A DNA stretch of 64,000 nucleotides from Promethearchaeati archaeon SRVP18_Atabeyarchaeia-1 (GTDB lineage: Archaea; Asgardarchaeota; Atabeyarchaeia; Atabeyarchaeales; Atabeyarchaeaceae): contig CP147779.1 in the NCBI GenBank assembly GCA_037308085.1, positions 672,001 to 736,000 of the forward strand, written 5' to 3'. Under the pieces are notes generated by a model that had not been told where the DNA came from, did not search any database, and saw only the letters and a list, made by a program, of their open reading frames with translations. A program made the position numbers and the translations under genes. Positions 20,487-27,445 of this stretch are shown in pieces (the stretch's first letter is position 1; the number at the start of each line of letters is the position of its first letter).

Positions 20487-20578
20487 TGGAGCCGCCGGCG
20501 AGAGTCGAACTCGCGACCACCAACTATCATGTTTCGTGATTACAAGGCTGGCGCTCTGACCGACTGAGCTACGGCGGC
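20487..20578 (-). tRNA. tRNA-Thr(TGT) with canonical 37/38 intron (20526-20540)
   Basis: GCCGCCG...CCAGC-CT-TGT-A^A-GTTGG...GTTCGACT...CGGCGGCTCCA. Confidence 0.93.
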
Positions 20579-25274: not shown

Positions 25275-25697
25275 TCAGATGTCAAGTACGAATCGAATCC
25301 TAGATCCATCTCTATCCTCAGTTATCTGCATTTCAGCGTAGGTGATTGCCTTTACCTCGGTCTTTCTTCCGTGTTTCTTGGGGTCGTAGGTCTCCCCTCG
25401 CGCCTCGCCCATCCCCTTCAGTCCCCCACCTACTTTAACAAGGTGGAATCTGAACGCGGAAAACGCGATTCGGTCTACGCTAAACCTGAACAGAAGCTCC
25501 TCTAGCCAGGAGTACAGTAACGCCTCAATATCCTCCGCCGACACCTCGATCTTAACGCTCATTTTTTGGTCTACCTTCGATGGGTCAAGCATGACATTGA
25601 ACATGGCCTCCGCACCAAATGAGAAAGCCTCGCCTATTGACGCGCCACGAGCCTCTATCATCACATCGGCGGTGTGCTCCAAGTATCTATAACCCAA
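25275..25697 (-). CDS. Archease (RtcB tRNA-ligase activator)
   Basis: YRYLEHTADV...LLYSWLEELL...EVKAITY...FVLDI. Confidence 0.93.
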   Translation of the reverse strand: MGYRYLEHTADVMIEARGASIGEAFSFGAEAMFNVMLDPSKVDQKMSVKIEVSAEDIEALLYSWLEELLFRFSVDRIAFSAFRFHLVKVGGGLKGMGEARGETYDPKKHGRKTEVKAITYAEMQITEDRDGSRIRFVLDI

Positions 25698-25919
25698 CCC
25701 AATTACCTCATCACAAATCATACATGTCAAAGGTTTCAATCTACGTGGGCAAAGGTAGGTATGCGTCTGCGCACCTGCGGTGCTCCACGTAGATCTGGGA
25801 CTTCACGGCATCATGCAGGTGCCTCGCGAATTCGTCGGCACCCTTCCGCTCCGCCCACGTCAAGGTGTCAGCCCGCACGATACTAATTCAACTAGGTATC
25901 TTGTTTTTGAGTCATCGCT

Positions 25920-26050
25920 TGGCGCCGGGGGTGGGATTTGAACCCACGCGCCCTTGCGAGCACAGACTTAGCAGGCTTGAGCCTTTGTGTTCGTCTGCTC
26001 CCTACCAGGTTCCCCGAGTTCTTAGAGGACACTCCCTAGGACACCCCGGC
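25920..26050 (-). tRNA. tRNA-Ser(GCT) with two non-canonical introns (15/16: 26010-26035; 29/30: 25977-25994)
   Basis: Acceptor stem GCCGGGG/CCCCGGC plus GCCA; long variable arm; spliced anticodon arm CAGGC-CT-GCT-AA-GTCTG. Confidence 0.9.
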
Positions 26051-26112: not shown

Positions 26113-26134
26113 GAAAACTTTATATTTAAATTTT
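26113..26134. promoter_or_regulatory. AT-rich BRE/TATA element between the divergent tRNA-Ser and SRP RNA genes
   Basis: GAAAACTTTATATTTAAATTTT; the TATA lies about 22-25 nt upstream of the SRP RNA 5' end. Confidence 0.65.
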
Positions 26135-26147
26135 CGGTATGCAAATT

Positions 26148-26497
26148 GGGGTTATGGTCCTAGGCGGGGGGCTAGGGACTCAGGTCGAAACCTCGCTTGG
26201 GCTAGAACTCCCCTGTACCGCAAACGCCCTATACGGCGGGCCGAATGCCGGCTTGAGGGGCTCCGAGCGCCCACGCAGCCTTCACCAAGGAGCGTGAAGT
26301 CTCGCCCTGGAGGGTGTCTGGTGGTCGAACGTTTCCCGTAGGGGAAATGGAGAAGACTGTTACAGGCAAATCCGACTAGGGCCGGGAGGCAGCAGTCGTA
26401 AGCTTGGCTAGGTGCGCTTCCAGGATCACGGGATGGATTTCCTCGGAGAGGGTGTTGGTGGACGTGAGGGACTTCGAGAGTCGGGGGCCATAACCCC
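26148..26497 (+). ncRNA. ffs: Signal recognition particle (7S) RNA with a putative 30-nt BHB intron (26178-26207)
   Basis: Helix 1 GGGGTTATGGTCC / GGGCCATAACCCC; Alu UGUA motif; helix 6 TTTCCC-GTAG-GGGAAA; helix 8 CGACT-AGG-GCC-GGGA-GGC-AGC-AGTCG. Confidence 0.92.
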
Positions 26498-27445
26498 ACT
26501 TCTTTTGGCAGTCTCGTCAGTCGATAGCTCTGATAGCAGTTTGCACACATTGCATAATCTGTCTGAGGATGGCTCACCGCAATGCTCGCACAGGGTGAAT
26601 TCCCCGTCATTGACGTATTTGCCGAGAGCGGGTGCGAGATCATCCAGAAATTTGAGGACACTATACTTCAAGCCAGGTCTCTTTGCCTCCAGATTGTTTA
26701 GAAGTGATTCGATCTCACCTCTCAACAGATTGGATGCGTAAGGACATTCTTGAGAATGGAACTCTATATCTTTGAAATACGCGTAGAGAATTGTCTCTCG
26801 CTCGGGAATCGCTCTCAGAGGCTTGATTCTCGGAACAAATCTCTCATGGCTGCCCGACGCAACTCTCGAAAGTCTGGCCAACCGGTGTATGTCGGAACGG
26901 AATACGTTAAGAAGTATGCTCTGTGATTCATCGTCCAGGTTGTGCCCAACTGCCAATTTAGTTGCTCCGAGTTCTCTCGCTTTGTCATTTAACGCCCTTC
27001 TCCTAAGCGAGCCACAGAAAGAACACGCGGTGACACCTGATCTTATGACGTTCCCGTCTCGCATTATTTCGTCGATCGTGTGCCCAAAGAGGTCCTTAAA
27101 AGAGAAGATGTGGTGTTCAACCCCAAGAAGCGAGGCGTTTCTCTTTGCCACTTCAATACTTCCTTCGCGGTAACCTGATATCCCCTCATCAATTGTGATG
27201 GCCACTAGCTTGGAGCTCGGAAACCTCTCTTCGATCTTCATCATGATGTGCAGCAATACCACGCTATCCTTGCCACCAGAGAGACCTACGGCTATTCTAT
27301 CATCCTCTCTAAGCATGTCGCGACCGGAAATTGAACGCCTGACCCTATCGTCGATCGATCTAAGGAAGCAAGCTTTACAGAGGTACTCTCCAGAGTAGGG
27401 TCTATACATTACGGCTTGCTTGCCGCACTTTGAGCAGTTCCTCAA
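26426..27445 (-). CDS. ncs6: tRNA 2-thiolation protein, Ncs6/Ctu1/TtuA family
   Basis: N- and C-terminal Zn fingers, PP-loop SGGKDS, CSFCG, GHNLDD. Confidence 0.88.
   Translation of the reverse strand: MRNCSKCGKQAVMYRPYSGEYLCKACFLRSIDDRVRRSISGRDMLREDDRIAVGLSGGKDSVVLLHIMMKIEERFPSSKLVAITIDEGISGYREGSIEVAKRNASLLGVEHHIFSFKDLFGHTIDEIMRDGNVIRSGVTACSFCGSLRRRALNDKARELGATKLAVGHNLDDESQSILLNVFRSDIHRLARLSRVASGSHERFVPRIKPLRAIPERETILYAYFKDIEFHSQECPYASNLLRGEIESLLNNLEAKRPGLKYSVLKFLDDLAPALGKYVNDGEFTLCEHCGEPSSDRLCNVCKLLSELSTDETAKRSGVMAPDSRSPSRPPTPSPRKSIP

Follow-up and report, generated by a model that had tools for sequence, protein, structure and literature searches.

Does the SRP RNA gene of an Atabeyarchaeia genome contain an intron of the tRNA type, and would its removal give the SRP RNA loop seen in intron-less Asgard relatives? 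We addressed this question in a 64,000-nucleotide stretch of contig CP147779.1 from SRVP18_Atabeyarchaeia-1, an Asgard archaeon of wetland soil (the window), to which the coordinates below refer. We conclude that positions 26178-26207 are a real 30-nt insertion in the loop of helix 3 of the Alu domain and very probably a spliced tRNA-type BHB intron, with cleavage and ligation in vivo being inferred.

The SRP RNA gene and its insertion

The Rfam model RF01857 (Archaea_SRP) matches 26152-26493 on the forward strand, with model positions 1-317 in order (125.5 bits, E 3.8e-28). This score exceeds the curated gathering score of 96.5 over the full model, and the match is the only one to SRP RNA in the 2,808,651-bp single-contig genome. 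Within the S-domain, which holds the helix-8 SRP54 site and the helix-6 tetraloop region, AGGGCCGGGAGGCAGCAG aligns to the consensus CAGGCCCGGAAGGGAGCAG with high posterior probabilities. The sole long insertion relative to RF01857 is 31 nt in length (26177-26207) and is located in the helix-3 loop. A T-rich run beyond the 3' end of the RNA was found by direct reading. The gene is divided as follows.

26119..26129, + strand: TATA-like A/T-rich box TTTATATTTAA, inferred from its position approximately 25-30 nt before the RNA 5' end, the spacing common in archaeal promoters
26152..26493, + strand: SRP (7S) RNA gene (RF01857), single copy, with a predicted mature length of 312 nt once spliced
26152..26177, + strand: predicted 5' exon, ending ...GGGGGGCUAGGG, from the EndA rule on bulge B1 (GGA, cut after GG)
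26178..26207, + strand: putative BHB intron of 30 nt, ACUCAGG...GGGCUAGAA, inside the Rfam insertion and bounded by the BHB cut sites; interior divergent and ends kept in three species
26208..26493, + strand: predicted 3' exon, starting CUCCCCUGUACC..., from the EndA rule on bulge B2 (AAC, cut after AA)

A canonical BHB motif at the insertion boundaries

The insertion lies within a motif made up of the following elements.

26166..26171, + strand: 5' strand of the outer helix h, GGGGGG, which is mature helix 3 and pairs with 26209-26214 (Rfam structure line; h=8 with extension)
26172..26175, + strand: 5' strand of the central helix H, CUAG, exonic, paired with 26202-26205
26176..26178, + strand: bulge B1, GGA, left unpaired by both MFE and RNAalifold; predicted to be cut between 26177 and 26178
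26179..26201, + strand: intron hairpin h', CUCAGG (26179-84) with CUUGGG (26196-201), interior variable
26202..26205, + strand: H', the 3' strand CUAG, near the 3' end of the intron
26206..26208, + strand: bulge B2, AAC, with the predicted cut between 26207 and 26208; slipped to a 2-nt AA bulge in the MFE structure
26209..26214, + strand: 3' strand of the outer helix h, UCCCCU (Rfam structure line)

We calibrated the orientation of the motif on the window's canonical 37/38 intron, in tRNA-Thr(UGU) at 20578-20490 on the reverse strand. The SRP insert has the same order of elements as this tRNA, 5'-h-H(4 bp)-B1(3 nt)-h'...h'-H'(4)-B2(3)-h-3', where the rule is to cut each bulge after its second base. 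The outer helix of the SRP motif (G66-G71 with U209-U214) keeps the register of Rfam helix 3. An exhaustive scan of four-pair H candidates in the region gave h=8 and h'=7 for the SRP motif and values of no more than 3 for all others. The SRP motif thus meets the flanking-helix criterion for a BHB, at least 2 bp in each of h and h'. When folded in isolation, the slipped outer helix with the 2-nt AA bulge (-21.9 kcal/mol) is favored over the strict 3-nt register (-19.3 kcal/mol), which is less stable by 2.6 kcal/mol.

How often would such a motif be met by chance? Requiring four Watson-Crick pairs in H, h>=5, h'>=6 and a length of 24-110 (87 lengths), we counted 49 motifs this strong in 5.6 Mb over both strands (29 + 20), or approximately 1e-7 per site and length. 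The genome-wide scan showed no enrichment of BHB motifs over a Markov control at any stringency and serves as a background rate only; the motif without its placement is therefore weak evidence. At this rate, however, chance placement at the one spot that restores the consensus loop is negligible. BHB-like shapes are not rare in general, but chance falls far short of explaining one this strong placed exactly at the limits of the Rfam insertion.

The exon end (26169-26175) and the intron end (26199-26205) have a 7-nt direct repeat, GGGCUAG, in common. Since CUAG is palindromic, the repeat itself forms the central BHB helix. Such a repeat is reminiscent of a target-site duplication, and alignment programs are misled by it when placing reads at the junction. 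A blastn-short search of the BHB and intron against the genome itself returned no significant second copy (best match 15 nt, E 0.065), and there is thus no evidence for transposition from a tRNA intron.

The predicted product restores the loop-3/loop-4 contact

Cutting in silico by the EndA rule, between 26177 and 26178 and between 26207 and 26208, removes 30 nt and leaves GGGGGG-CUAGGGC-UCCCCU, with a predicted junction of GGGCUAGGG joined to CUCCCCUGUA. The resulting loop, CUAGGGC, is that of the intron-less Asgard relatives G011 (GGGGAG-CUAGGGC-UUCCC), G026/G073 (GGGAAG-CUAGGGC-UCUCC) and G005. Its putative tertiary partner lies a short distance downstream.

26226..26231, + strand: helix-4 loop GCCCUA, partner of the spliced helix-3 loop UAGGGC (direct reading; the complementarity covaries across Asgard families)

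Loop 3 and the helix-4 loop are complementary over a stretch of 5-7 nt and covary across more than ten Asgard families, as in the loop-3/loop-4 pairs UAGGGG/CCCCUA, UAGCGG/CCGCUG, ACCGG/CCGGU, UAGGCC/GGUCUA, UUGCCG/CGGCAA, UCGGGC/GCUCGA, UAGCGC/GCGCUA and UUGGGC/GCUCAA. This complementarity is the known loop-loop contact of the Alu domain. No intron-less gene has an interrupted loop-3 strand. In the genomic sequence studied here it is split by the insert between UAGGG and C, with four of its bases held in helix H, and a contiguous UAGGGC appears only after splicing in silico.

The original prediction, made from sequence alone, had identified an SRP RNA at 26166-26235 interrupted by a strict hBHBh' motif, the splicing of which would give a normal helix 3 and six UAGGGC/GCCCUA pairs, the sixth across the junction. 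The letters were as quoted, the identity was borne out by RF01857, and the product claim held in silico. The motif claim also stands, as the geometry is canonical, with the caveat that the MFE favors the slipped register in isolation.

The motif is fixed while the intron interior varies

Our collection contains only three Atabeyarchaeia species genomes. The exons over the 5' domain and the motif CUAG-GGA...CUAG-AAC (H, B1 and B2) are identical in all three, and we confirmed the insert and its BHB motif directly in Atabeyarchaeia-2 (CP147780.1). The interior of the intron shows point changes within the genus (G001), and in the other genus (Atabeyarchaeia-2, G002) it is unalignable and 1 nt longer. 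A fixed motif around a free interior is what one would expect from selection on the splicing motif rather than on the content of the insert. RNAalifold recovers H, B1 and h', with one double change in h' (C-G to U-A) and three one-sided changes, pairing being kept. The covariation support is limited, comprising one compensatory pair in three species.

RNA and metagenome contigs

Ten metatranscriptome runs, from wetland, sediment and soil, contain part of the SRP RNA gene, and the RNA contigs covering it come from three studies. We aligned four of these runs (X1-X4) to the locus. No splice joint is reported in the contigs of the four runs, and X2, X3 and X4 cover only 26226-26497 and so are uninformative on the junction. 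X1, a wetland metatranscriptome, provides one contig of 236 nt with a depth of 4.5, which is aligned without gaps to 26199-26430 from its fifth letter onwards. It has 3 differing letters, and only that at 26234 is away from the ends.

A spliced molecule would align as X1 does, because of the similarity between the exon end, GGGCUAG-GG, and the intron end, GGGCUAG-AA. We simulated a spliced 236-mer (26165-26177 + 26208-26430), and its letters 5-236 were aligned to 26199-26430 with 2 mismatches under three scoring schemes, while a simulated unspliced 236-mer aligned from letter 1 with no mismatches. The simulated spliced contig agrees with X1 in all four numbers, and the X1 layout thus fits a spliced and not an unspliced molecule. 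This evidence is strong but indirect: it is a matter of alignment bookkeeping for one low-depth contig, the X1 sequence itself was not inspected, and the prediction was post hoc.

The spliced junction together with its helix-4 context gave 0 matches in JGI metagenome contigs, and a shorter pattern, GGGGGGCTAGRGCTCCCCT, gave 2, both in unrelated sequence. Neither an intron-less allele nor a spliced sequence was found in these contigs.

Splicing enzymes and neighboring tRNA introns

The genome encodes the proteins that splicing would require. The EndA family (PF01974) is present twice (104.5 and 65.5 bits), each copy having N- and C-terminal domains. The two paralogues are located at genome positions 202619-202873 on the reverse strand and 624258-624518 on the forward strand. 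The paralogue of 209 aa keeps the catalytic Tyr/His/Lys context, whereas the paralogue of 241 aa is without the His, as judged by eye, as in (alpha-beta)2 enzymes. This two-paralogue pattern has been described in 44 of 60 Asgard genomes (bioRxiv 10.64898/2026.10.13.758758), and BHB recognition is described as most relaxed in heteromeric EndA enzymes (PMC4731332). RtcB is encoded once (PF01139, 583.5 bits), as is archease.

25275..25739, - strand: gene for archease, a cofactor of the ligase RtcB, 413 bp upstream of the SRP RNA (PF01951, 144.7 bits, E 2.2e-42), single copy

Archease adjoins the SRP RNA gene in all three Atabeyarchaeia and not in Hermodarchaeia. We rejected this adjacency as functional evidence, since the synteny is restricted to Atabeyarchaeia, whereas a ttuA-like gene lies beside the SRP RNA gene Asgard-wide. 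The original prediction had placed archease about 450 bp away and inferred that maturation depends on EndA and RtcB/archease. The distance was close to correct and the enzymes are present in the genome; a functional reading of the linkage was not supported, and excision is supported by RNA only indirectly.

Introns are a feature of the tRNA genes of these organisms: 92-95% of tRNA genes in Atabeyarchaeia have them, often several, and many at non-canonical sites (PMC11291895). The gene between archease and the SRP RNA, a type II tRNA-Ser(GCU) with encoded CCA (25920-26050, - strand), has two non-canonical BHB introns. One, in the D-arm, is about 29-31 nt (about 26003-26033), and the other, in the anticodon stem, is 18 nt (25977-25994), with H GAGC/GCUC, bulges AGA and AAG (cut after AG and AA, respectively) and an h of 7 bp. 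ARAGORN and Rfam both missed this gene, and ARAGORN calls tRNA-Ser(gct) once it is spliced in silico. The canonical 37/38 intron of tRNA-Thr(UGU) (20490-20578, - strand) is 15 nt in length and has a central helix with 3/4 pairs (U-U mismatch) and an h' of a single pair; thus, relaxed BHBs serve here even at the canonical intron position. ARAGORN assigns this tRNA the wrong anticodon. We rejected ARAGORN with its intron option for a census of tRNA introns, as it returned only 22 tRNA genes, several of them wrong.

A different helix-3 insert in Hermodarchaeia

Hermodarchaeia (family f12; 16 distinct sequences aligned) also have a helix-3 insert, of 31 nt and unrelated in sequence to the Atabeyarchaeia intron. 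A model with canonical geometry can be drawn, with H GGCU/GGC(U/C), B1 AGA cut after AG, B2 AAG cut after AA, and h' AGCCC/GGGCU. It is paired in 208/208 cells, with four one-sided changes that all keep pairing; no double compensatory change is seen in the alignment of 16 distinct sequences. The predicted cuts are 2 nt upstream of the Atabeyarchaeia site and again yield CUAGGGC (CUAGAGC in G109). In G117, a loop-3 C to U change is accompanied by a loop-4 G to A change. No outer helix adjoins the BHB conformer (type HBh'), which lies approximately 10.5 kcal/mol above the MFE. We rejected the MFE "mirror" structure of this insert as a BHB, since its bulges are 5' of the H strands and its A12-U39 pair is broken in five species. 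On balance, we lean towards the Hermodarchaeia insert being a second, relaxed (HBh') BHB intron that gives the same loop, without regarding the case as settled.

Freyarchaeia, published as the sister group of Atabeyarchaeia, have SRP RNAs without a helix-3 insert, and TtuA identity does not place Hermodarchaeia close to Atabeyarchaeia. Two intron gains are possible, as is one old gain with sliding and losses. In both groups a (quasi-)palindromic tetranucleotide of the exon is directly repeated and so builds the central helix, with GGGCUAG...GGGCUAG in Atabeyarchaeia and GGCUA...GGCUA in Hermodarchaeia. A bolder reading, which we think improbable, is that the same 7-nt loop was invaded twice, in Atabeyarchaeia and in Hermodarchaeia, by unrelated BHB introns 2 nt apart, as insertions with target-site-like duplication. 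Were this true, it would offer a rare, datable view of BHB intron gain, a matter left open by the 2026 Asgard tRNA-intron preprint, and would supply the "simple BHB intron" stage from which, in the proposal of Plagens et al., permuted SRP RNA genes arose.

One Hermodarchaeia MAG (G125) contains two slightly different intron-bearing SRP RNA genes (L043 and L044) on separate short contigs. This pair is likely to reflect a mixture of strains in the bin rather than a true duplication.

Splicing model and alternative explanations

We propose that in the primary Atabeyarchaeia transcript the exon CUAG would fold onto the CUAG at the 3' terminus of the intron, forming a 4-bp helix flanked by the bulges GGA and AAC. 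An (alpha-beta)2-type splicing endonuclease would then cut after the second base of each bulge, and the exons would be joined by RtcB, assisted by archease. The predicted product has a helix 3 of GGGGGG/UCCCCU with a 7-nt loop, CUAGGGC, from which UAGGGC would pair with GCCCUA of helix 4, allowing the Alu domain to fold. The gene identity, the motif and its conservation, the fit of the product to relatives and the presence of the enzyme genes are all shown. It is very likely that the SRP particle depends on the tRNA-splicing enzymes, because the only SRP RNA gene carries the intron in a loop needed for folding.

The main alternative is that the insert is a retained expansion segment, giving a longer helix 3 and a mature SRP RNA of 342 nt, with the BHB-like shape being incidental. 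In its favor, the MFE structure forms one stable, uninterrupted hairpin (-21.9 kcal/mol), all Atabeyarchaeia and Hermodarchaeia examined have the insert, and no joint is reported in the RNA contigs. In other Asgard families the Alu domain has additional hairpins without a BHB between helices 3 and 4, and the unspliced UAGAAGC of Hermodarchaeia could pair with GCUCUA if one A bulges. Against it, retention would lock four of the six loop-3 bases in helix H and leave the sixth 30 nt away, disrupting a covarying contact. Furthermore, the interior evolves freely and the BHB parts alone are kept, and the cuts dictated by the motif yield exactly the loop of relatives. The compensating base in the Hermodarchaeia sequence G117 is the 3'-exon base and not the one that the retention model would use, and the X1 layout, as indirect evidence, fits the spliced form. 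We regard retention as very unlikely.

A second alternative is that the RNA is cut at the BHB and not rejoined, so that the SRP RNA would function as two pieces (26 nt + 286 nt) kept in place by helices 2 and 3. There is a precedent in rRNA maturation, where EndA cuts without the exons being ligated, and the 26-nt 5' piece could be retained by these two helices. However, the genome has genes for archease and for RtcB, which by default joins exons cut at a BHB, the X1 layout needs 13 letters upstream of the junction to be contiguous with the 3' exon, and the sixth loop-loop pair needs a continuous strand. Together these points all but exclude a two-piece RNA. An assembly or annotation artefact, in which the insertion is absent from the real genome or the copy is a pseudogene, is suggested only by the metagenomic origin of the genome and is likewise virtually ruled out, since the same architecture occurs in three Atabeyarchaeia assemblies, two of them closed chromosomes that were long-read validated by their authors (PMC11291895), this is the only SRP RNA gene in the genome, and RNA contigs from three studies cover it.

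Comparison with known BHB-processed RNAs

The closest precedent for a spliced Atabeyarchaeia SRP RNA is the permuted SRP RNA of Thermoproteus tenax and T. uzoniensis (Plagens et al. 2015, eLife, PMC4731332), in which EndA likewise acts on a BHB and RtcB then ligates. The host is similar in its exceptional load of tRNA introns and its heteromeric EndA (PMC4731332). The gene arrangements differ: the Atabeyarchaeia gene is collinear (model 1-317, with normal helix-1/2 termini) and its BHB is internal, with a predicted linear product, whereas the Thermoproteus gene is permuted, its BHB is formed from leader and trailer, and its SRP RNA is circularised. The site is also different, the helix-3 loop of the Alu domain as opposed to the tip of helix 8, as is the lineage, Asgard archaea as opposed to Thermoproteales. 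The locus would link SRP RNA and tRNA splicing in another lineage and at another site.

Non-canonical tRNA BHB introns, including those in the multi-intron tRNAs of Atabeyarchaeia and Freyarchaeia, have the same hBHBh' geometry, cut rule and enzymes (Marck and Grosjean 2003; PMC11291895; bioRxiv 10.64898/2026.10.13.758758). They are similar in length (15-40 nt) to the SRP RNA intron and are found in nearly all tRNA genes of the same genome. In the SRP case, however, the exon contributes a tertiary-contact loop to the motif, in place of a tRNA stem. EndA and RtcB also act on non-tRNA BHBs in the cbf5 pre-mRNA of Crenarchaeota (PMC2738675) and in rRNA introns and processing stems, where the host RNA is different. 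The rRNA processing stems release or circularise whole rRNAs, whereas the SRP RNA intron is an internal segment that would be removed.

We found no published internal intron in an SRP RNA in the literature searched, in which the only relevant items were the Thermoproteus permuted SRP RNA and a circular-RNA paper; the statement in the original prediction that none was known held to this extent. SRP RNA is not mentioned in PMC11291895 or in the 2026 preprint on Asgard tRNA introns (bioRxiv 10.64898/2026.10.13.758758).

SRP RNA is a universal, essential non-coding RNA, and its sole known tie to tRNA splicing is the permuted Thermoproteus gene. If the Atabeyarchaeia RNA is spliced, the substrate range of EndA and RtcB extends to a new essential RNA, and, in an archaeon closely related to eukaryotes, co-translational protein targeting depends on the capacity for tRNA splicing. 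Splicing here would also supply the "simple intron" stage hypothesised as the ancestor of permuted SRP RNA genes. Covariance-model annotation gives such genes depressed scores and the wrong mature sequence; thus, BHB-aware curation is needed for SRP RNA, and probably for other ncRNA and mRNA, in intron-rich Asgard genomes.

Other features of Asgard SRP RNA loci

Many Asgard SRP RNAs have an extra hairpin of 12-25 nt between helices 3 and 4, where the consensus has GUAA only. An example is UGA-GAGAGG-UUCU-CCUCUC-GACC, and such hairpins were seen at L013, L014, L023, L026 and L054-L058 (families f7 and f18), L045-L049 (f19), L012 (f10) and L067 (f9). We rejected these hairpins, of the Freyr/Jordi type and from other families, as introns, since no BHB could be drawn by eye. 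As inferred by eye, they resemble what may be a lineage-specific structural helix.

The ttuA-like gene, for a tRNA 2-thiouridine synthetase (PF22082 and PP-loop), lies at 26426-27445 on the reverse strand, convergent to the SRP RNA gene. Nearly every Asgard family that we sampled has the same convergent arrangement (Atabey, Hermod, Odin-size genomes, Freyr-type and others). The last approximately 19 codons of the ORF in the window, which are not conserved, overlap the 3' end of the SRP RNA on the opposite strand.
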